A stretch of DNA of 64,000 nt from Anaerolineae bacterium (GTDB lineage Bacteria > Chloroflexota > Anaerolineae > Epilineales > Epilineaceae): positions 8,401 through 72,400 of the forward strand of contig JBGAUA010000003.1 of the NCBI GenBank assembly GCA_044228875.1, read 5' to 3'. The number at the start of each line of letters is the position of its first letter. Position 1 is the stretch's first letter. Positions 613 to 64,000 of the stretch are shown here, one piece after another. A model generated the notes under the pieces. That model saw nothing but the letters and a program-made list of their open reading frames with translations, was not told where the DNA came from and made no database searches. A program made the position numbers and the translations under genes.

Positions 613-645
613 GCCGATGAGCGCCTTCACGCCGTCCCGGCGGCC

Positions 646-7714: not shown

Positions 7715-7772
7715 GGAGGCTGGCGGTCGGACGGTGCGGGCATTGACCGCGTCGCTCGGCGATGCCAGGCTG

Positions 7773-10817: not shown

Positions 10818-10844
10818 GACGGCGATTGTATTCGGGTTTATAAT
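10816..10844 (+). promoter_or_regulatory. candidate promoter of the ntrC-like/rpoN operon (ATGACG-17-TATAAT)
   Basis: A perfect TATAAT at 10839-10844 lies inside the only AT-rich patch of the 63-bp divergent spacer. The -35 is weak (ATGACG) at 17-nt spacing. ATG at 10881. Confidence 0.35.
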
Positions 10845-10852
10845 GTCCGCAA
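10825..10852 (-). promoter_or_regulatory. candidate promoter of the kinase gene (TTGCGG-16-TACAAT), apparently leaderless
   Basis: The minus strand reads TTGCGGacattataaacccgaaTACAATcgccgtcATG. The -10 ends 7 nt before the ATG at 10817, and no SD is present. Confidence 0.3.
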
Positions 10853-10880
10853 AGCGTACACGGACGTCAGGGTATCGCCC

Positions 10881-15392: not shown

Positions 15393-15504
15393 ACCCGTCC
15401 TGGACAACAGGCTCGAGCAGACGCGGCCACGGGCGGCTACCCGAAAGACGGCGGGCGGTGGTGGCCGATGCACGTTGCCCGATTCCGGATGTAGAATCGG
15501 CGCG

Positions 15505-22901: not shown

Positions 22902-23312
22902 GTTCGGGGTCCCTCCTGAGGATCGTGGTGCGGACACCGTCGTCTGCCGGTGATGATGGCGGCGGCATGCGGTGACCTGCGGGCCGAATATATCGCGCCA
23001 CCCGTGGGCGGCGCCTTATGGTTCGGGGTTGAACGTGCCCTGTAACGCCGCCAGACCGGCAAGCGTGACCAAGCGCCAGGCCGTCGGCGCGCGCGAGGCG
23101 AGCGAAACGCGGGCAAGCCTATCACGGAAGCCGCTGCGGAGCAAGGGATTTCCCGACCGACAGGTTTCGACAGGCCCCGGGCCGACGGCCCTGGCCCGCC
23201 ATCCGCTATCGGTTGCCATGTCGCAACCATCGGTCTCCGTGTTAGCATGAAGCGCCAGCCCGCCGATCGATCCCGTACCGCATCCCTATCGTTCCGCCCC
23301 GTGGAGGTTGCC

Positions 23313-36423: not shown

Positions 36424-37439
36424 AACGCGTCCCGCCGCCGCGTGGCGCGGGTCGCCGGCGCGTCCAGGGCCTCCCGCCAGAAGCCCAGCCCCCATGAAAG
36501 ATGCATGCACAACAGGACGGGCGGCAGCAGGCACACGTCACGCAAGGCCGCCCGACGCCGCAGCTGCCAGGCGGCTGCCAGCAGGGCCAGCAGGTAGGCC
36601 GCCGGGAGCGTCGCCAACCAGAGCCGCAACGCCGGTCGGATGACGGCCAGGAACAGCGCCAACGACAGGAAGGCGACCCACAGCGCTGGCAGCAGCTGCC
36701 GCCAACGCAAGGAGCCGCGGTGCTTGCGCCAGGTGGCGGCCCGGCCCCGGCCGTAGCCCCAGTACTGGCGCACCAGGCCGGCGGCGCTGCCACGGGTCAG
36801 GGTGCTGCTGCGGATCGCCGGGTCCAGCCACACCGTTCCGCCGGCCGCGCGGATGCGCAGGGCCAGCTCGTAGTCCTGGTTACGCTCCAATGCCTCGTCA
36901 AAGCCGCCCAGGCGCGCGAGCGTCGCGCGCGGCCAGGCGCCCAGGTAGACCGTGTCCACCGGCCCCACCCCGCCGCGGCGGAAGGCGGCGTCGCCGGCGC
37001 CCAGAGGATGGGTCCAGGCCAGGGCCACCGCCCGACCCCAGGCCGTCGCGCCCCGCCCACGCAGACCCCCGCCCACGCAGTCGGCGCCCGTGGTATCGAG
37101 GGCCGCAAGGCAGGCCGTCACGTAGTCCGGGGCCGGCAGGGCATGGGCATCGAGGCGCAGGATCACCGCGCCGCGGGCGGCGGCCAGGGCGGCGTTCAGT
37201 CCCGCCGGCGTGCTGCCGGCGGCATTGTCCACCCAACGAATGGGGCAGTCCGCACACCGGCGCTCGTCGGCCAGGGCCACTGCCCTCGTCGCCCCGTCCC
37301 CCGGCAGGCCGGCAACGAGAATCTCCAGTCCCCCTGCCGGCCGCTCGCCGGCCAGGAGGGCGTCCAGGCAGAGGCCGAGGACCGCCCCAGCGTCACGGGC
37401 GGGAATGATCACCGAGACAGCAGGCGCCGTCGCGCTCAT
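36420..37439 (-). CDS. glycosyltransferase family 2 protein with C-terminal TM helices
   Basis: VSVIIPARDAGAVLGLCLDALL...ILRLDAHALPAPDY...FDEALERNQDYELALR. ATG 37439 overlaps the upstream stop (ATGA). The longer track ORF (to 38513) is out of frame with the real upstream gene. Confidence 0.85.
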   Translation of the reverse strand: MSATAPAVSVIIPARDAGAVLGLCLDALLAGERPAGGLEILVAGLPGDGATRAVALADERRCADCPIRWVDNAAGSTPAGLNAALAAARGAVILRLDAHALPAPDYVTACLAALDTTGADCVGGGLRGRGATAWGRAVALAWTHPLGAGDAAFRRGGVGPVDTVYLGAWPRATLARLGGFDEALERNQDYELALRIRAAGGTVWLDPAIRSSTLTRGSAAGLVRQYWGYGRGRAATWRKHRGSLRWRQLLPALWVAFLSLALFLAVIRPALRLWLATLPAAYLLALLAAAWQLRRRAALRDVCLLPPVLLCMHLSWGLGFWREALDAPATRATRRRDAF

Positions 37440-38687: not shown

Positions 38688-39845
38688 TCAGCCTGTCCGC
38701 TCGGCCAGGATCGTGTGGTAGAGGGAGGCCAGCCGCCGTGCGGCATGGCCCGGCGAGCAATGCAGGCCGACATGGCGCCGGGCGGCCTCGCCCAGGCGGC
38801 CGGCTTGCTCCGGGTTGTCCACGAGGGCCAGCAGCCGCTCGGCCAGCTTGTCGGGGGAGCGCGGTGGGATCAGAAGGCCCGTCTCGCCGTCCTTGACCAC
38901 ATCCGGCACGCCGCCCACCCGCGAAGCGACCACCGGTCGCGACAGGGCCATCGCTTCCAGAAGCACCACCGGCAGGCCCTCCTGCCGCGAGGGCAGCGCC
39001 ACCAGATCGCTCGCGGCCAGGAGCGAGGGCACGTCGGCACGATAGCCCAGGAAACGCAGGACACCCTCCAGTCCCAAGGCCCGGGCCTGAGCCTCCAAGT
39101 CCTGCCGCAGAGGCCCGTTGCCGGCGACGAGGAAGCGGGCCTGCGGCCGGAAGGTGTGCACCACCTGCGCGGCGATGAGAAAGTCATCGATGCCCTTCTG
39201 CGGCGAGAGCCGCCCGATCAGGCTGATGACCGTGGCGTCCAGCGGCAAGCCCAGCCGGGTGCGCACGGCCTGGGGGTCATCGGCTTCGGCGGCGATACGA
39301 TCGACATCGATGACATTGGGCACCAGGACCACCCGCCGCTCGTCCAGACCACGCGCCAGGAGCATCCTGCTCTGGTCGCGGGAGACGGTGACGACCCGGT
39401 CCGCGAGGCGCAGGAGGAACAGATCGATGGCCCGATACAGCCGCAGGCGGCGGGAGGTGCCGGTATGCAGATGCACCGTGGCCACCCAGGGCAGGGCCCG
39501 GTCGGAGCGCCGCGCGGCCAGACCACCCAGGATGTTGCTCTTGTAGTCGTGGGTATGCAGCACGTCGGCGCCGCTCCCCTGCACCCGCCGGGCCACCCGG
39601 CGGGCCAGGCCCAGGCTGAACGGCCCGGGGTCTTCCATCTGCTCCGCCTCGAGGCCCCGCTCACGGGCGCGCTCCAGCCAGGGATGCAGCTCCGACCCGC
39701 CGTCCGGAGCGCGGTAGAGCGCCAGGATACGGGTGGCCACGGCGTAGTCCCGCAGGGCGTCCACCAGCAGCAGCAAGGCCTGCTCCGGCCCGTAGGACTG
39801 GGTTGAGCTGCGAACGTTGAGCACGGCCAGCGGCGGGCGGTTCAC
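38688..39845 (-). CDS. glycosyltransferase family 4 (GT-B) protein
   Basis: DVLHTHDYKSNILGG...GRLSPQKGIDDFL...VALPSRQEGLPVVLLEAMALSRPVVASRVGGVPDVV. GTG start in a GTGA overlap with the upstream stop. Confidence 0.9.
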   Translation of the reverse strand: MNRPPLAVLNVRSSTQSYGPEQALLLLVDALRDYAVATRILALYRAPDGGSELHPWLERARERGLEAEQMEDPGPFSLGLARRVARRVQGSGADVLHTHDYKSNILGGLAARRSDRALPWVATVHLHTGTSRRLRLYRAIDLFLLRLADRVVTVSRDQSRMLLARGLDERRVVLVPNVIDVDRIAAEADDPQAVRTRLGLPLDATVISLIGRLSPQKGIDDFLIAAQVVHTFRPQARFLVAGNGPLRQDLEAQARALGLEGVLRFLGYRADVPSLLAASDLVALPSRQEGLPVVLLEAMALSRPVVASRVGGVPDVVKDGETGLLIPPRSPDKLAERLLALVDNPEQAGRLGEAARRHVGLHCSPGHAARRLASLYHTILAERTG

Positions 39846-40999
39846 GCGGCGGCCCTCCGCCGATGGTCCAACGCCGCCAGCCAGTGGTCGTACTGGTCCT
39901 GGAGCGCCGCGGCATGCGCTTCGATGCTGAAGCGCTCCCGCGCCAGCGCCTGCCCGGCCGTCCCCATCCGTGCCCGACGGGCCGGATCCGTGATCAGGCT
40001 TCGAATGGCCGCGGCCAGCGCCGCGGGATCACGCGGCGGCACGAGCAACGCCGTGCTCCCGTCGTCCACCGCCTCGGCCACGCCTCCCACCCGCGTGGCG
40101 ACAACGGTCCGTCCCGCCGCCTGGGCCTCGAGCAATGCCAGGGGCAGGCCCTCGATGTCCGAGCCGAGGACCACCAGGTCGCAGGCGGCGTAGAGACGTG
40201 GGAGGTCGTCGCGCTGACCGAGGAACTGCACCCGGTCGGCCAGGCCGGCCGCCGCCGCGAGGGCCGGCAGCGTCGCGGTCAGGGGACCGTTGCCGGCGCA
40301 TAGGAGCCTCGGTCGCGGGAGGCAATCGGCCAACAGGACCATGGCGGCCAACAGGTCCGCGTGGCGCTTCTGGGGGTGGAGCCGGGCCGGCGTGAGGAGC
40401 AGCAGGTCATCGAGGGCCAGGCCCAAGGCGGACCGTGCGGCGCTGCGATCCTGCCCGCCGAAGGTCTCGAGCCGGATGCCGTTGGGCAACACCGCCACCC
40501 GACGGGGGTCGATGCCCTGGCGAACCAGCCAGGCGGCGTCGGCAGCGGAGACGGCCAGATAGCGTTGGCCGGGAAGGCGGTCCAGCAGCCGATCGGCCAG
40601 GCGGCGCGCCCGACCGGGCGCCAGGGGTCGGCAATGTTCGTGGGCGATGGTCAAGGGCAGGCCGGCCATGCGGGCGGCCAGGCGGGCATAGGGCGCCACG
40701 CGGCTGTAGAGCGGGGTCTGGACGATGGCTGCCCCGCTGGCACGCAAGGCGGCGGCCAACGCGAGCACCGCCCCCCCGTCGCGAGGGCCGCGCAACCGAC
40801 CCAGCACATGGACGGGAACGCCCATCGTCCGCGCCGCAGCCACCGAAGGGCCCTCGTCCCGGGCGCAGATGAGAACCGGACGGTAACGGGTGGGGTCGAG
40901 CCGCCGCCAGCCGTCCAGCGCCAGGCGTTGGGCGCCGCCCTGCCCGAAGTCCAGGAAGACATGGGCCACGGTCACCGGAACGCCCGGCACGGCGTTCAC
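39842..40999 (-). CDS. glycosyltransferase family 4 (GT-B) protein
   Basis: VAHVFLDFGQGGAQR...ARLHPQKRHADLL...VLGSDIEGLPLALLEAQAAGRTVVATRVGGVAEAV. GTG start in a GTGA overlap. Confidence 0.9.
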   Translation of the reverse strand: MNAVPGVPVTVAHVFLDFGQGGAQRLALDGWRRLDPTRYRPVLICARDEGPSVAAARTMGVPVHVLGRLRGPRDGGAVLALAAALRASGAAIVQTPLYSRVAPYARLAARMAGLPLTIAHEHCRPLAPGRARRLADRLLDRLPGQRYLAVSAADAAWLVRQGIDPRRVAVLPNGIRLETFGGQDRSAARSALGLALDDLLLLTPARLHPQKRHADLLAAMVLLADCLPRPRLLCAGNGPLTATLPALAAAAGLADRVQFLGQRDDLPRLYAACDLVVLGSDIEGLPLALLEAQAAGRTVVATRVGGVAEAVDDGSTALLVPPRDPAALAAAIRSLITDPARRARMGTAGQALARERFSIEAHAAALQDQYDHWLAALDHRRRAAA

Positions 41000-41403: not shown

Positions 41404-42158
41404 GCGACGCTGGATGATGGTGAACGACGCGCCGTGGCGATGACCGACAATCCGAAGGGCAGTCGATGGCCCGCGGCGATCCAGCGTCGCTCGACGTCGA
41501 GCACCGCGATCGCCAGCCGGTTTATCGGTTCTGGCGGGATGGTCAGGTCACGCGCCGGACCGGCCGGTGTGAAGCGCTCAGCGAAACGCCAGAGGATGGC
41601 CGCGCCGAGAAGCAGGCCGTTGGCGTAGGTCAACCGTTCGACCTCGAAGCCCGCCTGCCGCAGGCGATCCGCCAGCAGATGGGCGTTGTAGCGCTCGCGC
41701 GTGCCTACCTCGTCATCATGGCGGCCGCGCAGCCAATCATAGGCCGGCACTTGGATGAGCAGGCGCCCGCCCGGCCGAAGGATACGGTGGAATTCACGCA
41801 ACGCCGCCAGGTCGGAACCCACGGCCTGATGGTACACCACGTCCAAGGAGCTGACGCTGTCGAAGCTCTCCGACTTCAGAGGAAGCGCGGTGACCGTCGC
41901 CTGGCAGCGCTGCCGTATGCCGCGCCGCCCGGCCCAAAGGAGTGCATCGCGGTAGAGATCCACCGCGACCGCCGCCGGCGCTTCCGGCCGCGCCCGGGCC
42001 AGAGCCGCCAGCCAGCCGCCCGTGCCGCAGCCGGCGTCCAGCAACTCGCCGGGATCTCCCGTTCCCAGGAGCAGGCCCATGGCGGTCGCGCGCATGCCCA
42101 GGTACCACCAATGCAGATCCTCTACGCGGGCCAGGGTTCGATAGGCGGCTTGATTCAT
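41400..42158 (-). CDS. class I SAM-dependent methyltransferase
   Basis: HWWYLGMRATAMGLL...LLDAGCGTGGWLAAL (motif I)...FDSVSSLDVVYH...LRPGGRLLIQVP. Confidence 0.9.
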   Translation of the reverse strand: MNQAAYRTLARVEDLHWWYLGMRATAMGLLLGTGDPGELLDAGCGTGGWLAALARARPEAPAAVAVDLYRDALLWAGRRGIRQRCQATVTALPLKSESFDSVSSLDVVYHQAVGSDLAALREFHRILRPGGRLLIQVPAYDWLRGRHDDEVGTRERYNAHLLADRLRQAGFEVERLTYANGLLLGAAILWRFAERFTPAGPARDLTIPPEPINRLAIAVLDVERRWIAAGHRLPFGLSVIATARRSPSSSVA

Positions 42159-42231
42159 CGCTCAGAGATCTGCCTTGTCGCCGGGACCTGCAGGGGCTGT
42201 CGTGCCGGCTATCTTATCATCGCCCCCATCT

Positions 42232-42260
42232 TTGACCACCCTTGGGCCGGATCCTATAGT
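42232..42260 (+). promoter_or_regulatory. sigma-70-type promoter candidate (TTGACC-17-TATAGT) for the GT-C/GT2/FemAB/YdjC operon
   Basis: TTGACC at 42232-42237 and TATAGT at 42255-42260 with exactly 17-nt spacing, about 80 nt upstream of ATG 42342. The complementary strand offers TGGTCA-16-TAAGAT for the divergent methyltransferase operon. Confidence 0.55.
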
Positions 42261-42341
42261 CTGCGCGGTGGCTTCCTTCTCGCATCCAGCAGGCCTCGCC
42301 CGCTCTCGGCCAGGGCCTTCAGCTGTCTTCTCGTCGAAGTC

Positions 42342-44078
42342 ATGCTAGGGCCATCCCCTGCCGCGGGCAGGCGCTGGCTGCTGATCAGCCTCGTCCTGTA
42401 TCTGGCACTGCGCATCCTGGCCCTGGCCTCCGTGGCGGTGCTCGAAGACCGCGACAGCACGAGCCTGATCCGTGACGCCCAGGTCTTCGCCAGTTGGGAT
42501 GCGGCCCGGATCATCGACCTGCGCCCGGATGCCACGCCGCTCTACCCGCTGCTGACCGCTGTCGCGAACCGCCTGGGCATGTCCTGGGTCTTCGGCGCCC
42601 GCTTCGTATCCTGGTTGGCCGCCGCCCTGTTGGCCTTGGCGATGACCGGCATCGCGCTGCGGCTGGCGCCTCCTGACGCTTCAGGTCCGCCGGCTCCGGA
42701 ACGCTCGGCGACGGCACGGTCCTGGACCCTCCACGTCGCCGCGGCCGGCGTGGCGGTCATGGCCCTCAGCCCCACCTTGGTGGACCTGTCTCGCTCTGTG
42801 CTCACCGAGGGTCTGTACATCGCCGTGGTCTACGGTGGCCTGTGGCTGCTGCTTCGCCGTGGCGCCGCCCCGAGCCGGCGCGGCGCCATGCTTCTGGGGG
42901 CCGTCTTCGCCCTGGCATTCCTGGCGCGAACCGAAGGCCTGCTCTACCTGGCTGCCGTTCCCGTCATCCGGCTTGCCACCGCCTGGAGCGCGGACCGCGG
43001 ATCCGGCGGCAGGACGCGGTGGGTGTCCAGCACTCGCACCTGGCTGTCCTGGTCCGCCGCCTATGCCCTGGGCTTTGGGCTGCTGGCGCTGCCGCAGGTC
43101 TGGCGGGTGAGCCGGTCCATGGGGCAACCGGCATTCAACGGACGCCAGGTCTGGCAAGTCATCCTGAACCAACCAGGCGACAAGCCGTACGAGCAGAAGA
43201 TCTACGGGCTGGACCACAGCCCTTACCAGATCAACCTGGTCTACATCCAGAGCCATCCCGAGCAGGCGCGGCTCATGGCCGGCAACGTGGCCGGCTCCGA
43301 CCTTGTCGCCAAGGCCGCCGGCCTTGGGCGAGGCTTCCTGACCCGAAGCCTGCCCCGGCTCATCAGCCCGCTCGGCCTGCTGCTGGCCGCCCTGGGCGTG
43401 ATGGCGCTCTGGCAGGCGCGCCGCAGGGCGGACCTGGCATGGATGGGTCTCTTCCTGGGCGCCAGTCTGGCCGCCCCCTTGCTGCACGACCTGGACCCCC
43501 GCCACCTGGCGGTGTCCCTGCCAGTCCTCGCGCTCTTGCAGGGCATCGGCCTGGTCTGGCTGGCGGGTGCTTCGCCACCCGGTCTGGGGACGCCGCTCCT
43601 CCCGAAGGTCGCGGCGCGACCAAGGGTCGCGATGCGCGCGGCCTTGACGGTCGCGACCTTGGCCGGCCTGCTCTTGGGCATGCGAAAGGACCTGGCTTTG
43701 GCGACATGGCCGCCACCTGAGAGTCGCGACTACGCCATGGCCGATCAACAGGCGCTGCTGACGGCGCTCCGCCAGGCCGATTGGCCGAAGCCGGTGGATG
43801 GGCTGCGGATCACCGCCCGTCAGGGCTACTTCTCGCTGGCTGCCGGTGCCCAGGAAGTCTACCTGCCTTTCGCCGACTACGAGGCTTTGGTGACGTATTG
43901 CCGTTTCAACCAGGTGGACGTCCTTCTGCTGGAGCACGATCTCCTGGAACGCTACCCTTTCCTGCCGCGCTTCGCGGCGGAGAGCTCGCCGGACTTCATC
44001 CGCGTCCATCGCCACGTCAGCCCCAGCCATGGCCTCCTGGAGCTTTACCGCTTCAGCCCGCGCGGGGACGGATCGTGA
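42342..44078 (+). CDS. GT-C fold polytopic membrane glycosyltransferase (ArnT/PMT-like, GT39/GT83-type)
   Basis: Many TM helices, a first-loop acidic motif VLEDRDSTSLIRDA, and a periplasm/exterior-type C-terminal soluble domain. The track ORF start at 41466 is antisense to the methyltransferase and rejected; ATG 42342 is used. Confidence 0.75.
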   Translation: MLGPSPAAGRRWLLISLVLYLALRILALASVAVLEDRDSTSLIRDAQVFASWDAARIIDLRPDATPLYPLLTAVANRLGMSWVFGARFVSWLAAALLALAMTGIALRLAPPDASGPPAPERSATARSWTLHVAAAGVAVMALSPTLVDLSRSVLTEGLYIAVVYGGLWLLLRRGAAPSRRGAMLLGAVFALAFLARTEGLLYLAAVPVIRLATAWSADRGSGGRTRWVSSTRTWLSWSAAYALGFGLLALPQVWRVSRSMGQPAFNGRQVWQVILNQPGDKPYEQKIYGLDHSPYQINLVYIQSHPEQARLMAGNVAGSDLVAKAAGLGRGFLTRSLPRLISPLGLLLAALGVMALWQARRRADLAWMGLFLGASLAAPLLHDLDPRHLAVSLPVLALLQGIGLVWLAGASPPGLGTPLLPKVAARPRVAMRAALTVATLAGLLLGMRKDLALATWPPPESRDYAMADQQALLTALRQADWPKPVDGLRITARQGYFSLAAGAQEVYLPFADYEALVTYCRFNQVDVLLLEHDLLERYPFLPRFAAESSPDFIRVHRHVSPSHGLLELYRFSPRGDGS

Positions 44079-47159: not shown

Positions 47160-48173
47160 TCAGCCGAAGCGCTCGCTCCGCCCAAAGCGCCCCCCGAGGT
47201 AGTCGGCGATCCCCCACAGCACCGCGACCGCGTCGCGCCGCCGGCTGGGGAAGAGCCATCGCAGCGGTTGGCGCGCGGCCAGGGTCATGGTCTCCAGCCA
47301 GCAGCGCCGCCTCGCCGCCCTGTCGCCCCAGCGCCGCGCGAAGCGCAGGCGGTTGCGGATGTTGTAGTAGCGCCGTCGCGCCGGATCCGTGGCGGTGCCG
47401 GCCGACCCCAGATGCAGTACCCATGCCTGCGGCACGTAGCAGATCCGCCAGCCGGCCTCCCGGGCGCGCAGACCCCAGTCCACGTCCTCGAAGTAGAGGT
47501 AGCAGGCTTCGTCGAACGCGCCCACCGCCTCCCAGGCGCGGCGGCTGATCAGGCTGGCCGCGCCGCTGGGGTAGTCCGGATCCGGTGAATGGTCGTACTG
47601 GCCCTCGTCGGCCTCGCCTTCGCCGCGCAAGGCGGCGAAGGCACGTTGGCGGTCGACGGCGCCCCCGGCCCCGTTTAGGATGCCCGGTCGATCGCGATAG
47701 CCCAGCCGGGCCGTTGTTGCCGCGATGCGGGGATCCTCGGCGAGGGCTCGGGCGAGCGCTGCGACCGCTCCCGGCTGGACGAGGGCATCGTCGTTGAGGA
47801 TCAAGACGGCCACCGCACCCATGTCCCAGGCCGCCTGCCCGCCCTGGTTCACTGCTGTCGGCCAACCGCGGTTGTCGGGATTGCGAATGACCCGGATCCA
47901 CAACGGCGGCGCGTTCACACGGGGCATCGTCGCGTCATGGCGAACGCCGTCATCCCTCTCGTGTACCGCTGCGCCCCGCCCCTCCAGCCAGTCGCCCGTT
48001 CCATCCGTAGAGGCATTGTCCACCACCACTGCGCCGACGATCTGGCCCCGGAGCGCGCTCAGGACCTCCGGCAGGCGCTGGCGGGCGTTCCAGGCCGGGA
48101 TGACTGCCCAGACACCCGCCCCGGGCTCCGTGGCGCCGAGCGCGACATCGCCCGACCGATCCGTCGCGGTCAT
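47160..48173 (-). CDS. glycosyltransferase family 2 protein (rhamnosyltransferase-like)
   Basis: WAVIPAWNARQRLPEVLSAL...VVVDNASTDGT...VLILNDDALVQPGAV...YLYFEDVDWGLRAREAGWRICYVPQAWVLH. Confidence 0.85.
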   Translation of the reverse strand: MTATDRSGDVALGATEPGAGVWAVIPAWNARQRLPEVLSALRGQIVGAVVVDNASTDGTGDWLEGRGAAVHERDDGVRHDATMPRVNAPPLWIRVIRNPDNRGWPTAVNQGGQAAWDMGAVAVLILNDDALVQPGAVAALARALAEDPRIAATTARLGYRDRPGILNGAGGAVDRQRAFAALRGEGEADEGQYDHSPDPDYPSGAASLISRRAWEAVGAFDEACYLYFEDVDWGLRAREAGWRICYVPQAWVLHLGSAGTATDPARRRYYNIRNRLRFARRWGDRAARRRCWLETMTLAARQPLRWLFPSRRRDAVAVLWGIADYLGGRFGRSERFG

Positions 48174-49792
48174 GGCCCCGGCATCCCGCGGCCTGTCAAC
48201 CGCCGTCCCAGGTCGCCGAGCAGCGCCTGATCATCGTCGGTCAGCTCGCCCGAGCATCGCAAAGTCGCCAGGGCGGCCGCCGCTCCCGCCGCGCCGCTCA
48301 AGAGCAGCCCCGGCCAAACGGCCGGAAGGCTGGTAATCAGACCTCCGGCCACGAGCCCCCCGATCGCCGCCGCCAGAACCGCTCGGCCATCGGGGAACAG
48401 CTCCCTCGCGCGCAAGCCCTGCTCCAAGGCGAAGGCCGCCAGCATCCACAGCCCGCCGGCGGCCAGGCCGCCGGTCAATCCGCAGGCGACGCCCGCGAGC
48501 CCCCAGGATCGGGCCAGGTAGGCACCGCCCAGGGAGACAGCGGCCGTGCAGAGCCCAGCCGCCGTGCTATGCGCGGGTTGTCCGGCCGCCTGGGTGATCA
48601 AGAAGGCCGGCAGGGCCATGAGGGCCAGCATCCAGCCGGGGCTGAGAATCTGGACCGCTCGAGCCACTTCGGGCGCCGGATCGCCCCCCAGCCACAGCCG
48701 GCAGAAGGCCGGCGCCAGAACGGCCATCAGGCACCAGCCGGGCAGCACCAGCCGGCCGGTCCAGCGCCAGGCCCGGGCGTGCAGATCGAGGATGGCCTGA
48801 CGACGTCCGGCTCCGGCGGAGATGCCGTCCAGCCGGGCCGCGGCGGGAAAGAGCCCCGCGGCAGCGGCCATGCAGGCACCGCCGAACTGGCCCGTGATGC
48901 GCGCGGCGAGTTCGTAGGCCGCCACGGCGCCCAGACCGCTGGCCGCACCCAGGATGACCTTTGCTGCCGGGTCGATCAGGGCGCTGGCCAGGTTGACCGA
49001 CTGAGCATGGCTGCCGAAGCGAAGGAGCTGGGCGGCGACCACCGGCGACAGACCAGGACGGGTTACCGCCAGCACTGGGTTGACGCGAGATAGCTCCCGC
49101 TGGATCCATAGACCGGCCAGTACCGCCATGGCGGCGTTCTTCGCGACGAGACCGACGAGGCCTCCACCGGCCCAGAGCACCGGCAACACCAGCCACGGTG
49201 ACAGCAGGCGCTGGACCACCGCATCGATCAGGTTGACCCGATCCAATCGCCCGAGGCCCTCAAGGGCGGCCTGGCCGGGAGCGAACAGGCCTTCCAGGGC
49301 AGCGACCGCGGCGGTACCCAGGAACACCCAGCCCGCCTCCCGGGCCAGATCGGCCGGTATTCCGAAGCGGGGATCGATCAGAGCGGGCAGGAGGAGCGAC
49401 ACGAGTGCGATAACCCCCAGGCCCACCAGAATCGCGAGGCCGCGAGCGGTGGCCAGGGCCTGGACGGTGGCCGAAACAAGCGGATCGGCGCGCCGCGTCA
49501 GGGCCGCCTGCCGGCTCAGCGCCCGCCCCACGCCCAGGTCCGCCAGCCGCAGCAGACCGATCAGCCCCCCGGCTGCGGCCCAGAGCCCGAAACGCGCCGC
49601 CCCCAGCCGATCCAAGGTGAAAGGGGTCACAAGGAGGGCGCTCAAAGCGCCGATGACCACCCGACCGCCGCCGCTCAGGGCGGAGACCGCCAGCCGCGGC
49701 GTATCCGGGTTCGCGTCGCCGGAAGTCGAGGGCTGATCGGTCGACTTCTGTCGACCTGTTGACGGCGGGTCAACGGTACTGGGTTCTGGCAT
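48170..49792 (-). CDS. polysaccharide flippase (Wzx-like, MOP/MATE superfamily)
   Basis: About 12-14 predicted TM helices with Gly/Ala/Leu-rich composition. N-terminal pattern LVTPFTLDRLGAARFGLWAAAGG is typical of the 'polysaccharide biosynthesis protein' family. ATGA overlap with the downstream GT2. Confidence 0.75.
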   Translation of the reverse strand: MPEPSTVDPPSTGRQKSTDQPSTSGDANPDTPRLAVSALSGGGRVVIGALSALLVTPFTLDRLGAARFGLWAAAGGLIGLLRLADLGVGRALSRQAALTRRADPLVSATVQALATARGLAILVGLGVIALVSLLLPALIDPRFGIPADLAREAGWVFLGTAAVAALEGLFAPGQAALEGLGRLDRVNLIDAVVQRLLSPWLVLPVLWAGGGLVGLVAKNAAMAVLAGLWIQRELSRVNPVLAVTRPGLSPVVAAQLLRFGSHAQSVNLASALIDPAAKVILGAASGLGAVAAYELAARITGQFGGACMAAAAGLFPAAARLDGISAGAGRRQAILDLHARAWRWTGRLVLPGWCLMAVLAPAFCRLWLGGDPAPEVARAVQILSPGWMLALMALPAFLITQAAGQPAHSTAAGLCTAAVSLGGAYLARSWGLAGVACGLTGGLAAGGLWMLAAFALEQGLRARELFPDGRAVLAAAIGGLVAGGLITSLPAVWPGLLLSGAAGAAAALATLRCSGELTDDDQALLGDLGRRLTGRGMPGP

Positions 49793-56110: not shown

Positions 56111-56536
56111 TCAGTTCGTCACCAAGCGGCTGCGCAGCGAAATCGTCTCCACCGCCGCCAAGGCCTTGGACACCGGGCAGCCTTCCTTGGCCCGCAAGGC
56201 GATGACGTCGAAGGTCTCCTCGTCGATCCCGGGGACCACGCATTCGGTCTCCAATTCGATCCTGGTGATGGTCGGCCCGGCTTCCAGATGCACCTTGGCC
56301 GTGGTGCGGATCGTCGTCGGAGGATGGCCTTCCTTGGTCAGTTGGGCCGACAGGAACATGGAGAAGCAGCCGGCATGCGCGGCGGCGATGAGTTCCTCCG
56401 GATTGCTTCCCTTGGCCTCTTCGAAGCGTGAGCCGAAGCTGTAAGGCACCTCGACGAAACCACTCTCGACGCGCACGGTGCCGTCGCCCTCGCGCAAGGT
56501 GCCGTTCCAGACCGCCTTAGCCGAACGAACCGTCAT
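56111..56536 (-). CDS. osmC: OsmC-family peroxiredoxin
   Basis: MTVRSAKAVWNGTLREGDGTV...GSNPEELIAAAHAGCFSMFLS...EGCPVSKAL (two conserved Cys). AGGAGG lies upstream of ATG 56536. Confidence 0.9.
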   Translation of the reverse strand: MTVRSAKAVWNGTLREGDGTVRVESGFVEVPYSFGSRFEEAKGSNPEELIAAAHAGCFSMFLSAQLTKEGHPPTTIRTTAKVHLEAGPTITRIELETECVVPGIDEETFDVIALRAKEGCPVSKALAAVETISLRSRLVTN

Positions 56537-56895
56537 GAGCCTCTGCCTCCTGAGTTGGATGGATGCCGTCGGACCGAATGCGACATGCAATTATGGCGGC
56601 CGCGCCGGCAGGGTCCAAAGACCTGCGGCCGGCGGTTCGTGTCGCGCGGATGACACGCGACGCCCCGCGACCATGCCGGGACCAAGGTGATCGGGATCCT
56701 CGCCAGGGGAACCTGTCGATATCGTGAGAACACCCACGTTATAGAGGACGCAACGAATACGCGCGGCGGCGCATTGGCCGCCGCCGTCCTCGGAGCAAAG
56801 CCGGAACGTGCAGGTCGGCGCCGCGGGCCGCGATACGACGCCTTCGTCAATTGCCGGTCAAGCTGGTTTCCTGTTCCAAGAAAGGGCGATGCGTC

Positions 56896-59800
56896 ATGAC
56901 ATTCCAGAGTGCCGCGCTGGCGTTCACCGTCTGGTTGCGGCGGTCCGGTTGGCGACCAGGTCTGCTCGCGGGGATGGTCTTGACCGGTCTGGTCGGCGGC
57001 TGGATGCAGCGATCGCCGTCCACCGCTCTGCCTCGCGTTCGTTCGGCAACCGCGCAGGAGCCGTCTCCGCCGGGTTTCCTGGGTCTGCCCATCTTGAACT
57101 ACCTGGGTGAAGACGATGTCTGCCGTAGCCTGGTGGGCCTGCAGAACCTCGGTGACGAGGCGGCTCAAGCTGTCGTCCTGTTCTGGGACGATCAACGTGC
57201 GGGCGATCCTTGCGCCGGCCCCTTCAAGGTGGAATGCAGCGGGCTCCTCGCTCCCGGCGCCATCTGGTCCTTGCGCGGAGCCCAGATTCCTCCGGGCAGT
57301 CGCAGCGCCATGGCCTTCAGCGTGACCGCCAGGCGGCTGAGCGAGCTCGGCCTGGACATGGGATTCGACAGTACGGCGGCGCATTACCTTTGCGCCACCT
57401 TGTCCAGCGATCTGATGCTGGGCGACTGCGCCGCCTACGCGCGCTTCCGCGCGGCATGGGCCTCCGGCGGCAGCTTCGCCGGGCTGCCATTGGGTCTCGC
57501 AGCAGGGCCGCCACTTTCCGCCCAAGTGTTGCGCCACTGTCCCTCGGCAAATTCGCCGGGCCTGGAGGTCAGCTCCCTCTACGCCGCTTCCTGGCAGAGC
57601 GCCGCGGCGAAAGGACCCCACGTCTATCTGGCCGGCCGGATTCGCGTCCCCGACCCCTTTCTGTCCGCCTTCGTCCATCTGCAGAACCTGGGATCGCGGG
57701 AGGCTCAGGCCACCGTCGCCTTCCATGCGGCTGGAGATTGCCTGCCGGCTCGAGCCTGCGGCCGATTGACCGTACAGCCGGGCGCATCGGCGATGTTGTC
57801 CTTGGCGGACTGCGCCCCGACCGACGGCGGGCTCAGCATCCAGAGCGATGAGCCCCTGGCCGTGACCGTCGACCTGGAAGGAGCGGACAGCCTGTCCACA
57901 GTGGAGGGCACCGACGCCGTCAACTGGGGCACGCGGCTGGTCGGCGCCATGGACCCCGATGCGGCCCGCGGTTGGTCCACCACCACCTATGTGCAGAGCC
58001 CGCCAGGCGCCGAGCGCGAGACCAGGGTGCGCGTCGAGCATCTGTCGCCGGACGGTGCGGTGCTGCACAGCGCCGAACAAACGCTCTGCCCCGGAGGCAT
58101 GCTGACCTTTCCTCGGCCGGCCGCGGACTCGCGACCCGGACGTCGGACCGGGACCTTGCGCGTCAGCAGCCTCGACGGGATTTCGGTGGCGGCCGGTGCC
58201 CTGATGGAGCGCTCCGGCCGCTTCGGGCGGTCGGTCGAGGCGGCGCTCGTCAACCTGGTGCCGGATCCGGCGCCGGGGCGCGGGACTGTCCATTCCCTGC
58301 CCATCGTGGCCAAGGATCTGGATGGCCTGGGACTGACGACGGAGATTGCCCTGGCCAACCACAGCATCTCGCCCGGCTGGGTGGATCTGGCCCTGATGAC
58401 CTACGACGCGAGCGGCCCGCTGGACATCCGCTGCCGCCGTCTGGCCGCCGGACAGGTGGGCTACATCGATGTTGAGCAGATGGTTCAGATCCCGATTGGT
58501 TTCCTTGGCGGCATGGTGGTCTCCCCGGTATGGTGGTCGCACGCGACTCCGGACGGTGAATCGACGAGCCCCTCGCTGAGCGTCAGCTCGATCCTGCGCA
58601 CGGGAACCCGTGACGGTGAAGACATCCCGGGCGACGAACTGGCGGTCAGCCAGGGCATTCGGCTGAACAGCATCCCGGACTTCCTGCGCGCGGCTCCCGC
58701 GCAGCGTTGCCGGCCACTGCTGGCGGCGATCCAGCCACAGCCCACCGCGACGGCCGATCCGCTGGTCAAGGACGAAGCCCTTCAAGCCATGGCCTGGCTG
58801 CCCGCCTTGGCCTACCTGGGTCAGGATCCCGTTTGCCTCGCCACGGTGACGGTGACCAACGAAGGCGACAGGCCGGCGCAGCTGCTGTGGCTGGCTTGGA
58901 CGGAGCCTGGCTTCTGCCCCCCGAAGGCCGCAGGTCCTATGGCCTTCGGCTGCTCCGGTCTCCTGGCCCCGGGCGGAACCTGGGTGCTCGGCGAAGGCAC
59001 CTTGCCCGATACGGCGAACGGAGGTCTGATCTACAGTTTGAGCACAGCCACGCTGCTCGAACTGGAACTGGATCCTGTTTCACGGGAACCCATCGCCTCG
59101 GTCCTCTGCCAGCGTATGTCAGGGATCTCGGTTCCGGCCGATCAAATGGAAGGTCGCCTGCGGATGGCCTTCCAGACAGGAGGTCGCTTCGCCGACCTGC
59201 CCCTGGGCAAAGCCTGGGGGCCGCCGATCACGGCCTCGGTCAGCCGAACCTGCCCGGCAGACCAGACGCCGGGCTTCGAGGTGACCGACAGCTATGCGGC
59301 ACTGCGGCCGGACAAGGGGCGAGCGACGCGCATGGAACATCGCTACGCGGCCCAGCCCATCCTGGCCGACTGGGCCCAGCTCAACAGCACCCTCTACCTC
59401 CAGAACACCGGCCTTAGCTGCGCCGCGGTCAACCTGGCATTCCAGGTCCTGGGCGACTGCGTGTACACCCGCAACTGCCAGATCGGATCCCTGGCCCCCG
59501 GCGAGACCTTTGCTTTCGACGCCACGGATTGCGTCGGGCCGGATTGGCGGGGCAGCGCGGTCATCACGGCCAACGAACCGCTGGCCATCGTCCTGGACCA
59601 GATCGGGCGCGACCGCCTGCGAAGCAGTCGCGCGGGATCCAGCGCCCTGGCCTACGACATGGACGGCAACGGACAGCTGGAGTCAGCCGATGTGGATCGG
59701 GTCCTCGCCGCCCTGGGCCGCCGGCGGGGCGACGGCGGTTGGGACGCGCGCCTGGACCTCAACAGCGACGACGAGGTGAACGATCTCGATGTGGCCACCG

Positions 59801-61719
59801 CCCGGACCGGCCTCTGCCGACCTGCTCAGCCGGCGGGTGTCCCCGTCCCCAGGCCCGACGATCCGTTGCCCCGCCTGCAGACCTTCCTGCCGGCCCTGAC
59901 CGGCGATGGGTCCGGGCGCGCCGACTGCAACGCCTACGTGGACATCCAGAACCTGGGCCAGGTTCCAGCCAAGGCCATCCTCCTCCTGTGGAGCGCGGTG
60001 ACCGCCGATTCGGGCGATTGCCAGAGTCCCAGCCGCGTAGAATGCTCGCCGCTGCTGGCGCCGGGGACCCGTTGGCTGTTGCCGCGGCCGACGCTGGCGG
60101 GAGTCGGAAGCGCGGTGGCCTTCGGGGTGGACGGTATCGCGGATCCGACGGCAGTTCTTGGTATCGAAGCGGACGATACCGTGGCCGATATCCTCTGCGA
60201 GACCCTTCGCTTTGCTGTGGTCGGCGAATGCGCGGACTACCGCCGTTTCAAGTCCGCCTGGGACAGCAAGGGGTCCTTTTCCGGGATCCCCTTCGACAAG
60301 CTCAACGGTGTTCCGTTGGGCATCCGCGTCGAGCGGGATTGCGCCTCGTCCGGACCGCGGGTTCCGGCAGGCCGGCGCGAGCGCAGCGCCTACACCGGGC
60401 TGGATGCCGCGCAGCTCTCCGGCTGGGACGAAGCCGCCGGCGCCCATGTCAGTACCGTGCCGGTCCTCTACGCCAACAAGGCTGGCATCAACACCCGGCT
60501 CTGGCTGCAGAACGCCGGTGTCGCCGCCGCCCAGGTTGAGGTCTGGCTACAGGCCCAGAACGACTGCACCGGCAGCCGCCGCTGCACCTCCTTGTCCGTG
60601 CACCCTGGAGCGGTGGTCGCCGTCGATCCCTACGTCGACTGCCGACACATCGACTGGCAGGGCTCTGCCTGGCTGCGGTCGACAGCGCCTATCGCCGTGG
60701 TGGCGGAGACCGACGGGCGCGGCGTTCGGATGGCCGCCGCGGCACCGATGCGACAGCCGCCCCTGGGCGCCGATCCTGCAGCGCTCACCACGAACACCGT
60801 GCTCTTCGGCCCGCTCATCCAGGCGGACCAGCAGGGCTGGGACGTGGGGGTCAACGTCCAGAACCTGAGCCTGAGCCAGGAAGCCTGGGTGGATGTGGCC
60901 TTCCTGGACGGGCAGGGCGCACCGGTGTCCACCTTCGACGCCCGTATCTGCGCCGGCGACACCGAGACCTTCTTCCTGCCCGTGTCCGATGTGTCGCGGC
61001 AGCGGTTGGGGTCCTTGGGCACCGTCCGCGTGCTGAGCCGGCCGCCGGAAGGCCAGGCCGGCCTCGTCTCGACGCCCATCGCTGGAATTCTGATGATGAT
61101 GAACTATGCCGATCCCTCTCGCGCCACCTTGCTGGAGGCGGTCTCCTATCCACTGCTGACCTCAGACGCGGTGGGTCCATGGCCGCTTGGCCAAGGGCGG
61201 CCAGGCACGGCAGTGCTGGCCTTGCCGGGACTGGTTCATCAACCCGGACCGGAGGGCGAGACCGGCGAGCTGGTGATCAGCAATCTGGCCGGACTGCCGG
61301 GTGAGACGGTGGTGGACGTCACGCTGTTCGACGACAAGGGTGTGGTGGCCAAGACCGTGAGGCGATTGGCGGCCGGCGCGGTGGAGGCCATTCCGCTGGC
61401 GGAACTGGGCGTTCCCGCAGGCTTCCGAGGCGCGGCGCTGGTCTCGGCCGCCAGCTGGACCCATCGTCGGCCGGACCGGCCCGCGGACCCGGCGGTGATT
61501 GCCCTGGCGGCCGCGGCGCTGACCAAGGTGGGTGCTGACGACTCGCCACGCTTGAGCCCGGGGCCGCGCATGGCCGCTGAGCCGGGCATCCCGCTGGTGC
61601 GGCTGCCAGGTGTGGGGACGTCGGAGCCACGTCCACCGGCTCCGACCGCGGAACCGCGCACGCCTGAACCGCTAGGAACCGGAAAGGCCTGGCTGCCGCG
61701 GCTCGGAAAGGGGCGCTGA
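56896..61719 (+). CDS. giant (about 1,607 aa) secreted/anchored Cys-rich repeat protein: three paralogous super-modules, a dockerin-like Ca-binding pair, C-terminal Pro/Thr linker
   Basis: N-terminal hydrophobic anchor AALAFTVWL...GLLAGMVLTGLVGG. Three collinear modules (nt ~57076-57885, 58786-59595, 59872-60711) share LP.L..LG....C...V..QN.G....A...W......C......ECS.LLAPG..W ... LC..L.....C..Y.RF..AW...G.F...P. Repeated V.(V/L)QN.G / V.V.N.G beta-sandwich (CARDB-like) signatures. No enzyme motif recognised. Confidence 0.8.
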   Translation: MTFQSAALAFTVWLRRSGWRPGLLAGMVLTGLVGGWMQRSPSTALPRVRSATAQEPSPPGFLGLPILNYLGEDDVCRSLVGLQNLGDEAAQAVVLFWDDQRAGDPCAGPFKVECSGLLAPGAIWSLRGAQIPPGSRSAMAFSVTARRLSELGLDMGFDSTAAHYLCATLSSDLMLGDCAAYARFRAAWASGGSFAGLPLGLAAGPPLSAQVLRHCPSANSPGLEVSSLYAASWQSAAAKGPHVYLAGRIRVPDPFLSAFVHLQNLGSREAQATVAFHAAGDCLPARACGRLTVQPGASAMLSLADCAPTDGGLSIQSDEPLAVTVDLEGADSLSTVEGTDAVNWGTRLVGAMDPDAARGWSTTTYVQSPPGAERETRVRVEHLSPDGAVLHSAEQTLCPGGMLTFPRPAADSRPGRRTGTLRVSSLDGISVAAGALMERSGRFGRSVEAALVNLVPDPAPGRGTVHSLPIVAKDLDGLGLTTEIALANHSISPGWVDLALMTYDASGPLDIRCRRLAAGQVGYIDVEQMVQIPIGFLGGMVVSPVWWSHATPDGESTSPSLSVSSILRTGTRDGEDIPGDELAVSQGIRLNSIPDFLRAAPAQRCRPLLAAIQPQPTATADPLVKDEALQAMAWLPALAYLGQDPVCLATVTVTNEGDRPAQLLWLAWTEPGFCPPKAAGPMAFGCSGLLAPGGTWVLGEGTLPDTANGGLIYSLSTATLLELELDPVSREPIASVLCQRMSGISVPADQMEGRLRMAFQTGGRFADLPLGKAWGPPITASVSRTCPADQTPGFEVTDSYAALRPDKGRATRMEHRYAAQPILADWAQLNSTLYLQNTGLSCAAVNLAFQVLGDCVYTRNCQIGSLAPGETFAFDATDCVGPDWRGSAVITANEPLAIVLDQIGRDRLRSSRAGSSALAYDMDGNGQLESADVDRVLAALGRRRGDGGWDARLDLNSDDEVNDLDVATARTGLCRPAQPAGVPVPRPDDPLPRLQTFLPALTGDGSGRADCNAYVDIQNLGQVPAKAILLLWSAVTADSGDCQSPSRVECSPLLAPGTRWLLPRPTLAGVGSAVAFGVDGIADPTAVLGIEADDTVADILCETLRFAVVGECADYRRFKSAWDSKGSFSGIPFDKLNGVPLGIRVERDCASSGPRVPAGRRERSAYTGLDAAQLSGWDEAAGAHVSTVPVLYANKAGINTRLWLQNAGVAAAQVEVWLQAQNDCTGSRRCTSLSVHPGAVVAVDPYVDCRHIDWQGSAWLRSTAPIAVVAETDGRGVRMAAAAPMRQPPLGADPAALTTNTVLFGPLIQADQQGWDVGVNVQNLSLSQEAWVDVAFLDGQGAPVSTFDARICAGDTETFFLPVSDVSRQRLGSLGTVRVLSRPPEGQAGLVSTPIAGILMMMNYADPSRATLLEAVSYPLLTSDAVGPWPLGQGRPGTAVLALPGLVHQPGPEGETGELVISNLAGLPGETVVDVTLFDDKGVVAKTVRRLAAGAVEAIPLAELGVPAGFRGAALVSAASWTHRRPDRPADPAVIALAAAALTKVGADDSPRLSPGPRMAAEPGIPLVRLPGVGTSEPRPPAPTAEPRTPEPLGTGKAWLPRLGKGR

Positions 61720-62439: not shown

Positions 62440-64000
62440 TTAGCGTCGCTCGGTTCGCGGGATCCACAGCCGGCCGACCTGGGACGTGGCGCTGGCTGCG
62501 ACGGAGACCGTCGCGGCAGCCGTTGGACTGGGCGTGGCACTGGGCGCGGGGGTTGCTGTCGGCGGTGCGGGATCGACGGACAGCCAGATGGCGCGCGGAT
62601 TGCCCCAGCGGCCGGCAGCGGATCGGCCACGAACGATGAGGTAGTAGCGACCGGGCGCGAGCGTCGTCGTGTCCAGTTCCACCGAGGCCTCCTCGATCAG
62701 GCTGTCGAAGGCGCCGTCATCGGCCGTCAATGCGAGCCCGCTTCCGGGCTCGGCATCTGAGCGCGGCAGCGCGATCCCGGCCGGCGGCCCGCCCGGCCCG
62801 CCGACAGTGACCTCTGCGCCGTCCACCTTCATCCCGCCGACCCCCGTACCGTCCAGTCGTGCGGTGACCCACAGCGGATCGCCCTGCTGCAACTCGACCG
62901 TATCCAGGCGCACCTGCGACACTTCGGGGGCATAGACCCGCGCGTAGGGCTGGTCGGAAAGGGTGAGCATGCGCTGCAATTGAGGGAGCTGGCTGCGAAT
63001 GATGCCGGGAACCTGGCTGCAAGGGGTCAGGAAGGTGTCGCCCTCCAGTTCGATGACGTAGCCGGGGATGCCCAACTCGCCGTATGCCCAGTCTCGGGCG
63101 TCGCCGCTGACGGGGTACAGGCTGTTCTTGGTGACGTAGCCGATGGGTGCGGCATACTGGGCGGCGATGGTCGACAGGCCGTCGTGGTTCGGTGCCCGGG
63201 CATCGGTCCAGCTCCAGGGATAGAGCATGGTGCCGGGCGACGTGTAGTTGTGGAAGTTGATCATGGCCCCCACGGTATCCTCGGGGGCCTTGTCGTCGTC
63301 CGCCGGCCCGCGCTGGTCGGGGAAGATCCGGCGCAGCATCGTCTCGTAGGCCTGGGTTTCGGGCTCAGATCCGGCGGAGCGGCCGCGATAGGTCTGCTCG
63401 CAGGCATCAGTGCTATGACCGGGTGCGTTCCACTTGAAGATGTGGTTGCGGTTGAGATCGACACCATAATGGCTGCCGGTGGTAGGAGGCCATTCGCAGG
63501 CCTCCCGCTCCCGGTGGGCGTTCTTGCGCCATTCCCAAGGACGGCCGTCAGCCGACGTGGCGCCCAACTCCACCAGCTCCCGCCCGTCAGGGTTCATGGC
63601 CAGACCCACATAGAGCTCGCGATGGTCCAGGAGGTAGGTGATCTGGGGATCGCGGCCATAGCCCTCCACCATGGTCTGGATGAAGGCGCGCATGAGTTCG
63701 ATGGTGGGCAGCTCTCGCGCGTGCAATCCGCCGTCGGCCCAGAAGCGCCCCACTTTGGCGCTGGTCGCCTCCCGCGCGGTCACTTTGGCCACCAGGATAT
63801 CGTGCCCCGTCAGCGCATCGCCCTTGGGGCTGCGGCAGGGGCCTTCGGCCTTGCAGTAGCTGTCGCCGGCGTCGATGACCTCCACCAGGTGGGAATGCTG
63901 CGCGGCGTAGTCCTTCAGCCAGTCCAGGGCTTCGGCCACCTCCAGGTAGCAGCTGGGCCAGGCCTGGGGCGCGGCGGGCATCTGGCCAAGGACGGTCAAC
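62440..64000 (-). CDS. secreted M14-family zinc carboxypeptidase with C-terminal beta-domain and Pro/Thr linker (5' end beyond window)
   Basis: ADGGLHARELPTIELMRAFI (HxxE), LAMNPDGRE, GVDLNRNH, YRGRSAGSEPET, INFHNYTSPGTMLYPW. The ORF is still open at the window edge and no signal peptide is seen, so it is N-terminally incomplete. Confidence 0.85.
   Translation of the reverse strand, partial: LTVLGQMPAAPQAWPSCYLEVAEALDWLKDYAAQHSHLVEVIDAGDSYCKAEGPCRSPKGDALTGHDILVAKVTAREATSAKVGRFWADGGLHARELPTIELMRAFIQTMVEGYGRDPQITYLLDHRELYVGLAMNPDGRELVELGATSADGRPWEWRKNAHREREACEWPPTTGSHYGVDLNRNHIFKWNAPGHSTDACEQTYRGRSAGSEPETQAYETMLRRIFPDQRGPADDDKAPEDTVGAMINFHNYTSPGTMLYPWSWTDARAPNHDGLSTIAAQYAAPIGYVTKNSLYPVSGDARDWAYGELGIPGYVIELEGDTFLTPCSQVPGIIRSQLPQLQRMLTLSDQPYARVYAPEVSQVRLDTVELQQGDPLWVTARLDGTGVGGMKVDGAEVTVGGPGGPPAGIALPRSDAEPGSGLALTADDGAFDSLIEEASVELDTTTLAPGRYYLIVRGRSAAGRWGNPRAIWLSVDPAPPTATPAPSATPSPTAAATVSVAASATSQVGRLWIPRTERR

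Follow-up and report, generated by a model that had tools for sequence, protein, structure and literature searches.

The gene at positions 56896-61719 (+) of the 64,000-nucleotide stretch of Anaerolineae DNA analysed here (the window) encodes a protein that is built from two and a half copies of a unit of about 580 amino acids (aa), in the order unit, half-unit with a type-I dockerin, unit. We read this protein, with a probability of about 40%, as a multivalent extracellular, probably glycan-binding attachment scaffold that would recruit a cohesin-bearing partner. Surface proteins of this general kind, secreted and made of several sandwiches plus a dockerin, are familiar. The ~580-aa module, its compact tetrad of beta-sandwiches with a cysteine-rich insertion, and the short C-terminal tag of the protein appear to be undescribed in the libraries and literature searched, and no published description of the module was found in that literature.

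The target gene is intact, and purifying selection acts on it. It forms an uninterrupted open reading frame (ORF) of 1,607 codons from ATG plus a stop, with a Shine-Dalgarno-like GAAAGGG 8-14 nt before the ATG and an alternative in-frame TTG start at 56851, 45 nt on the 5' side, and its codon-position GC content is coding-like (GC3 0.81, GC2 0.56). An orthologue that is 94% identical and exactly 1,607 aa long (P0001; family members are given as P numbers) lies on three independent metagenome contigs, whose flanks match those of the target where the contigs reach, with OsmC upstream and DinB and an M14 peptidase downstream. A further orthologue, 76% identical, was found in a metagenome-assembled genome of Candidatus Epilinea brevis (Chloroflexota, Ardenticatenia), and the ORFs upstream of it match RNase J, TpiA and OsmC in size and strand. 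The window would thus most probably stem from a filamentous Chloroflexota bacterium of that lineage. Against this second orthologue, the ratio of nonsynonymous to synonymous substitutions (dN/dS) was 0.29 for the whole gene and fell to 0.14 in the third block (B3, see below), the most constrained part of the gene. An earlier note on this DNA had allowed that the frame might prove disrupted; the open frame, the purifying selection and the full-length P0001 speak otherwise. Inspection for a promoter and a terminator gave nothing informative. The antisense ORF at 56533-58785 (-), 750 aa long, failed the filter on codon-position GC, which the forward frame passed, and because of this it is most simply an artefact of the 67-70% GC rather than a gene.

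The repeat structure rests on three cysteine-rich blocks, B1 (57070-57930, aa 59-345), B2 (58783-59652, aa 630-919) and B3 (59872-60765, aa 993-1290), which, like all parts of the gene listed here, lie on the plus strand. Pairwise BLASTP showed the blocks to be paralogous far beyond chance, with 37% identity at E 3e-48 for B1 and B2 and with 36% at 1e-36 and 30% at 3e-27 for the other pairings, and a hidden Markov model (HMM) built from the three found exactly three copies in the protein. The tails that follow the outer blocks, T1 (57931-58770, aa 346-625) and T3 (60766-61620, aa 1291-1575), are paralogous as well, since BLASTP aligned aa 346-625 with aa 1291-1595 at 28% identity (E 1.6e-11) and the HMM self-matches agree. 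Thus, the true repeat is block plus tail. Unit 1 spans 57070-58770 (aa 59-625; BLASTP and HMM self-matches) and unit 3 spans 59872-61620 (aa 993-1575; AlphaFold model), and B2, delimited by BLASTP and the AlphaFold model, is a half-unit, with a dockerin in place of the second half. No DNA-level repeat was found, and the duplications are therefore old. The three collinear blocks and their motifs are as the earlier note described them. Its borders, which were counted from the TTG and correspond to aa 61-330, 631-900 and 993-1272 from the ATG, were right at the starts and about 15-20 aa short at the ends. Its ancient internal triplication stands as an old duplication but not as one of a 270-aa module, the ancestral unit being about 580 aa and the middle copy only half of it. 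The other parts that it listed, namely two beta-sandwich-like units after each outer block, a dockerin-like pair after the middle one, cysteines at conserved positions, an N-terminal hydrophobic stretch, a Pro/Thr linker and a C-terminal tail, were all recovered and are treated in turn below.

The AlphaFold2 model of unit 3 (aa 993-1575, from a 26-unit alignment) shows four beta-sandwiches at a mean predicted local distance difference test score (pLDDT) of 86.6 and a predicted template modelling score (pTM) of 0.90. In unit residues, the sandwiches run from about 1 to 180 (D1), 185 to 295 (D2), 305 to 432 (D3) and 440 to 575 (D4), so that each block holds D1 and D2 and each tail D3 and D4; the half-unit has D1 and D2 only. 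DSSP assigned about eight to nine strands to each sandwich, with a short helix after the fifth strand in all four. The high pTM implies that the unit is a compact, fixed bundle of the four sandwiches. D1 also carries a cysteine-rich helical segment (60133-60312, aa ~1080-1139, or unit residues ~90-145), consisting of two helices that hold conserved cysteines, and this segment is an insertion, because profile positions ~90-143 are missing in some relatives. B2 with the segment after it (aa 630-985) was modelled at pLDDT 91.1 and pTM 0.89. Profile-profile comparison by hhalign related D2 to D3 with a probability of 94% (E 1.5e-7), aligned equivalent positions in the remaining pairs with D2 or D4 (E 3.5e-4 to 1e-2), and found no similarity between D1 and D3; on this basis, it supports a distant relationship and a common ancestry of the four sandwiches. 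Descent from DUF11 repeats was considered and rejected, as D1-D4, compared by hhalign with 86 DUF11 repeats taken from giant members of the family, reached probabilities of 1-7%. Across 151 non-redundant family units, 45 columns are at least 85% conserved, of which unit 1 of the target retains 38 and unit 3 retains 41. The polar residues at this level are R and Y in D1, the N of the QN motifs (h-x-h-Q-N-x-G recurs in the unit), and N, D-x-N, S and W-x-H in D4.

No structural match to the whole unit was found in the PDB or among the viral models of BFVD, where the query-normalised template modelling (TM) score in Foldseek was at most 0.16. Complement C5/alpha-2-macroglobulin, GH2, seed globulin and virus capsid hits were dismissed as multi-sandwich noise (TM <= 0.25, root-mean-square deviation above 13 A). 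The only match with a probability of 1.0 in both PDB searches, which used two independent models, was TM1070 (1nc7); it spans one sandwich, with a target-normalised TM score of 0.59-0.70, a root-mean-square deviation of 2.6-4.7 A and 10-12% identity. TM1070 has been placed in the ASRT/ASRAH superfamily, for which sugar binding was predicted on contextual and structural grounds (PMC2739507). According to that paper, the solo ASRAH protein forms a tetramer, and the extracellular versions are found as dyads or tetrads, of which some are fused to cell-wall amidases (PMC2739507). Because of the TM1070 match and the occurrence of ASRAH in fours, the unit may most simply be seen as a fused and diverged tetrad of the TM1070/ASRT fold, a likeness at the level of the fold between predicted models.

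The cysteines suggest that these sandwiches are cross-linked. Each of the three blocks has nine cysteines in aligned columns, and four cysteine columns are invariant in the 26-unit alignment. Others are present or absent together: columns 56 and 144 in 21/21 sequences, 52 and 259 in 13/13, and 273 with 437 and 281 with 304 in 25 sequences each, and such paired gain and loss is the pattern expected of disulfide partners. The disulfides predicted in this way for unit 3 would join the sandwich to the helical insertion (C1042-C1112), D2 to D3 (C1224-C1352) and two positions within D2 (C1230-C1249). In B2, an alternative pair, C674 and C842, which lies across D1 and D2, replaces the pair seen at C106/C178 and at C1042/C1112. 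B2 lacks D3 and keeps the D2 cysteine C855, and C974 stands directly after the dockerin. The counterparts of these two cysteines are also present or absent together in the dockerin-bearing rows of the alignment, as read by eye. C974 and C855 thus probably form a disulfide, and the dockerin seems to be stapled to D2 where D3 would otherwise sit.

The segment after B2 (59653-59820, aa 920-975) is a diverged type-I dockerin. Its span, YDMDGNGQLESADVDRVLAALG...LDLNSDDEVNDLDVATARTG, holds two canonical 12-residue calcium-binding loops, DMDGNGQLESAD and DLNSDDEVNDLD, both with D or N at loop positions 1, 3, 5 and 12 and both followed by a helix. The modelled helices (aa 930-938 and 963-972, segment residues 301-309 and 334-343) have 10-residue-block pLDDT means of 89-95, and Foldseek matched the X-dockerin chains 5k39_B and 5m0y_B with probabilities of 0.95-0.96. 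Against Dockerin_1 (PF00404), whose Pfam gathering threshold is 22.9 bits, the target scored below threshold, at 8.3 bits in the whole protein (aa 920-967) and 16.3 bits as an isolated segment. However, three of the seven relatives scanned passed the threshold in the aligned segment (P0009, 29.1 bits; P0011, 25.7; P0015, 33.6), and the segments of three further relatives scored 16.4-21.5 bits. In P0011-P0013, a shorter cassette of D2 alone plus dockerin, with the stapling cysteine pair kept, sits between two full units; the D2-dockerin pair therefore behaves as an insertable piece.

Both ends of the protein bear on its export and retention. The N-terminal region (56896-57054, aa 1-53) has a basic n-region, RRSGWR, a hydrophobic stretch at aa ~22-37 with a hydropathy peak of 1.73 over 15 aa (at aa 23), and A-x-A-Q-E, which is kept in the orthologues P0001-P0007; to judge by these features it would be either a cleaved signal peptide or a signal anchor. 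At the other end, a Pro/Thr-rich linker read from the sequence (61621-61683, aa 1576-1596) leads into the terminal KAWLPRLGKGR (61684-61716, aa 1597-1607). Similar tails end 70 of 300 family proteins under a permissive pattern centred on Leu-Pro (LP). The consensus is G-R-[IV]-[YFW]-L-P-x-[AL]-x-[RK], with the core h-[YFW]-L-P-x-[AL] and usually six residues after the Pro. Tag peptides include GKAWLPRLGKGR, RRIWLPLGIRGR and GRLWIPRTERR. The LP motif is not specific to the unit family, as four other exoproteins of the window carry it: a CotH/LTD protein (14857-19194, +), an S8/PA peptidase (19410-23015, -) and two M14 peptidases (23046-25343, +; 62440-63999, -). The strict form ends the CotH/LTD protein (RRIWLPLGIRGR) and one M14 peptidase (GRLWIPRTERR, identical in the Ca. 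Epilinea brevis orthologue at L001 15511-17667 (-)). Looser forms occur in the S8/PA peptidase (LYLPLVMPN, about 20 aa before the end) and at the end of the second M14 peptidase (LVLPLLGAP). The strict form matched three times among 201 ORFs versus 0.8 expected by chance. In the four other exoproteins, the motif mostly follows a Pro-rich or Pro/Thr-rich stretch, and no transmembrane helix comes after it. No hydrophobic helix follows the tag of the target either, only six residues (RLGKGR) after L-P, and the tag is therefore not of the sortase or exosortase type (LPXTG, PEP-CTERM); no NCBIfam sorting-signal model matched the tail, and a literature search with the motif strings returned nothing relevant. 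The shared motif looks like an undescribed C-terminal tag. Each unit also opens, after a Pro-rich linker, with a tag-like strand of consensus Q-V-H-L-P-I-L, and the C-terminal tail resembles the opening strand of one more unit.

The unit belongs to a large family. Searches of Pfam-A, NCBIfam and PDB sequences with the whole protein gave only the sub-threshold dockerin and EF-hand noise, and a 26-sequence profile of the unit matched no PDB sequence even at E <= 10. No similarity to a catalytic domain was found in the target by sequence or fold (Pfam, NCBIfam, PDB, Foldseek). This agrees with the earlier note, which had recognised no catalytic domain and had named a clean match to a known Pfam family as the result that would overturn its reading: the dockerin apart, neither Pfam nor NCBIfam has a model for the modules. 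A first word-indexed search returned 23 relatives. With the unit profile, an exhaustive HMMER search of 1.84 billion cluster representatives (50% identity clusters) returned 2,812 at E <= 1e-3, 1,406 at 1e-10 and 455 at 1e-30, and a search with one distant unit returned 325 proteins. The spread of homologues, which the earlier note had asked about, is thus that of a family that is not rare and whose named members are almost all proteins from metagenome-assembled genomes of Chloroflexota. Those with a taxon name belong to Anaerolineae, Ardenticatenales, Caldilineae or 'Chloroflexi', except for a partial protein from an Acidobacteria bin and another whose label is just 'bacterium'. The product names are 'hypothetical' or are taken from an accompanying domain, and none refers to the ~580-aa module.

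In a survey of 190 family members, many consisted of a signal peptide and a single unit (600-700 aa), and others had variable N-terminal parts (DUF11, PPC, a galactose-binding-like domain) followed by one unit. The unit is also fused to S8 peptidase, SdrD-B and CarboxypepD_reg modules, and one subfamily has a C-terminal extension of about 180 aa with a P-domain match in several members. Twelve giants of 2,000-4,800 aa (P0083, P0086, P0088, P0090-P0094, P0098, P0100, P0102 and P0106) carry a single unit 11-22 aa from the C-terminus, and most of the complete ones start with a hydrophobic signal-like or anchor-like stretch. In P0083, the giant that was scanned, 14 DUF11 repeats were found, and DUF11 or TIGR01451 appears in the names of others. 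Multi-unit forms exist, with four units in P0010, as do target-like forms with a half-unit and a dockerin. Units of different classes are about 50% identical, and at least one contig (414,186 bp) has two different family members, P0022 and P0100.

These results can be brought together in the attachment-scaffold reading. The export features, the covariation of the cysteines, the dockerin and the shared C-terminal tag argue for it, as do the nearest fold, a predicted sugar binder that acts in fours, the conserved polar and aromatic residues, especially in D4, and the unit's being the constant partner of very different secreted cargo. The occurrence of the unit either as the sole domain after a signal peptide or downstream of variable cargo fits a general-purpose module for attachment or binding. 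We infer that the protein would be exported through its N-terminal signal peptide or anchor and that its sandwiches would be locked by five to six disulfides per unit, the latter from sequence covariation. The modules would then bind or attach in a multivalent way, the most probable ligand being a polysaccharide of the cell's envelope or of a partner's surface; the calcium-dependent dockerin would couple the protein to a cohesin-bearing partner; and the C-terminal tag may be a sorting or retention signal common to the cell's other exoproteins. The signal peptide or anchor, the paired cysteines, the Pro/Thr linker and the dockerin all point to the extracellular location that the earlier note proposed, and its 'scaffold or adhesin' is a reasonable reading. 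Several observations weigh against ours. The link to ASRAH is one of predicted fold: PF07100 did not match the target in Pfam even at E <= 10, and neither the SHEshChhN signature nor its conserved His/Cys pair was seen on reading the target and family sequences. No cohesin was found among the 19 ORFs of the window that were scanned. The neighbourhoods consist of housekeeping genes that are not conserved between family members and lend no contextual support. If the tag is the retention signal, the modules need not anchor anything and could bind foreign surfaces instead, and a metal site or an enzyme not yet recognised could likewise account for the strongly conserved polar residues of D4 (N, D-x-N, S, W-x-H).

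The binding of foreign surfaces leads to a reading that we regard as possible, if on the whole doubtful, in which the units are adhesin or tip modules for other Chloroflexota filaments or floc material rather than for the cell's own envelope. The unit of the giants would then be the distal head of a DUF11 stalk with a membrane-anchored N-terminus, comparable to GhlA of Litorilinea, a giant DUF11 protein with a predicted N-terminal transmembrane segment and a hook at its far end (PMC13319060). The twelve giants suit this picture well, since their unit lies near the C-terminus, their N-terminus is mostly hydrophobic and those scanned or named are DUF11 proteins; the target too has its own N-terminal hydrophobic segment. 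The 49 DUF11 domains of GhlA (PMC13319060), at about 122 aa each, would by our arithmetic leave some 640 aa of it unassigned. Filaments of Ca. Epilinea attach to other filaments by an adhesion mechanism that is unclear (PMC10746286), and this attachment speaks for an adhesin as well. However, the target is without a stalk, no Litorilinea protein appeared in any family search, including one with the unit of a 4,615-aa relative, and the unit's fusions with secreted peptidases are explained by retention at least as readily as by adhesion. A self-assembling role, in which the four-sandwich unit would be the subunit of a proteinaceous outer layer or sheath of filamentous Chloroflexota and multi-unit proteins would cross-link it, seems unlikely to us. 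Litorilinea filaments are covered by a lattice-like protein layer of unknown composition (PMC13319060), which favours such a role, many members are just a signal peptide and one unit, the modelled unit is a rigid pseudo-tetramer (pTM 0.90), and a tag that resembles the first strand of each unit would allow head-to-tail contacts. Set against this, S-layer proteins are usually poorly conserved whereas identity between unit classes is about 50%, one contig carries both P0022 and P0100, the cargo is very diverse across the family, and neither evidence of abundance nor an SLH-type module was found.

That the unit is an unrecognised enzyme, with a catalytic or metal site acting for example on envelope glycans or peptides and with the target as a multi-site exoenzyme, is improbable in our view. 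The strongly conserved polar residues listed above for D1, the QN motif and D4, together with the constraint on B3 (dN/dS 0.14), speak for it, but the all-beta-sandwich architecture resembles no catalytic domain in sequence or fold, the unit is an accessory part on bona fide enzymes (S8), and the half-unit B2 is entirely without D4. We also considered, as a speculation with very little chance of being right, that unit and LP tag together could form a Chloroflexota-specific display or assembly system in which tags dock onto the unit by beta-strand addition. The first strand of the unit, x-x-[HWF]-L-P-[IA]-L, has the same form as the tag, [IV]-[YFW]-L-P-x-[AL], and the tags of S8, M14 and CotH exoproteins or of the next copy would dock, thereby tethering them or forming head-to-tail polymers without a sortase or a membrane anchor. 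A related possibility, by analogy with GhlA, is that the unit may be the head of DUF11 grappling hooks. Compared with these alternatives, the attachment scaffold remains the reading that we prefer.

The neighbours of the target gene are RNase J, TpiA, OsmC, DinB and an M14 peptidase, an arrangement kept only among close orthologues; the more distant family members have different genes around them. Elsewhere in the window, there are polysaccharide-synthesis genes at 613-2124 (+), 34990-36537 (-), 38688-40028 (-) and 48170-49792 (-), comprising two Bac_transf sugar transferases, a GT4 glycosyltransferase and a Polysacc_synt flippase, which from their domains could make an envelope polymer or an exopolysaccharide. 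An NtrC-type sigma-54 activator with receiver, AAA+ and Fis-type helix-turn-helix domains is encoded at 10611-12260 (+), about 2.6 kb upstream of the CotH/LTD ORF and with two ORFs between. Two further ORFs, 41424-44078 (+; 884 aa) and 6344-7852 (-; 502 aa), are coding-like and have no Pfam match at E <= 1e-4.

Filamentous Chloroflexota dominate activated sludge, and how they build an envelope of unusual, multilayered form, retain proteins on it and stick to flocs or to other filaments is largely unknown. This gene reveals a large, conserved and unannotated extracellular module, present in at least 2,800 clusters at 50% identity and carried by peptidases and giant stalk proteins. Once named and characterised, module and tag would lend an annotation to thousands of 'hypothetical' proteins and would provide concrete surface-attachment candidates for the phylum. 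The family is thus a good target for domain annotation and for work on the Chloroflexota envelope, and it would be a first-order surprise only if the tag-docking or hook-head idea proved true.

Compared with known systems, the closest likeness in fold is to ASRT/ASRAH (Pfam DUF1362, PF07100; PDB 1nc7, 2ii7), whose eight-stranded beta-sandwich topology is common to the single domains of the target. As in the dyads and tetrads of ASRAH, the four sandwiches pack into one compact unit; unlike ASRAH, they lie in one chain, have putative disulfide cross-links and include the cysteine-rich helical insertion of D1. With the type-I dockerins (PF00404), cellulosomal and non-cellulosomal, the target shares the two calcium-loop and helix repeats. 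However, its dockerin is placed in the middle of the protein, replaces half a unit and is seemingly disulfide-stapled to the preceding sandwich; nothing suggests a cellulosome, and neither a cohesin nor a carbohydrate-binding module matched in the target, as a scaffoldin would have them (Pfam). The retention modules SLH, CWB2 and LPXTG offer a functional analogy, a constant module or tag on varied secreted cargo and often at the C-terminus, and there is no relation in sequence or fold between SLH or CWB and the target, which neither matched in Pfam. The grappling-hook proteins GhpA and GhlA differ from the target by their long stalk, as Pfam found no DUF11 in the latter. Nevertheless, the DUF11 giants, including GhlA of Litorilinea aerophila (PMC13319060), are extracellular proteins of the same phylum, and the distant relatives of the target are themselves DUF11 giants that end in the unit.

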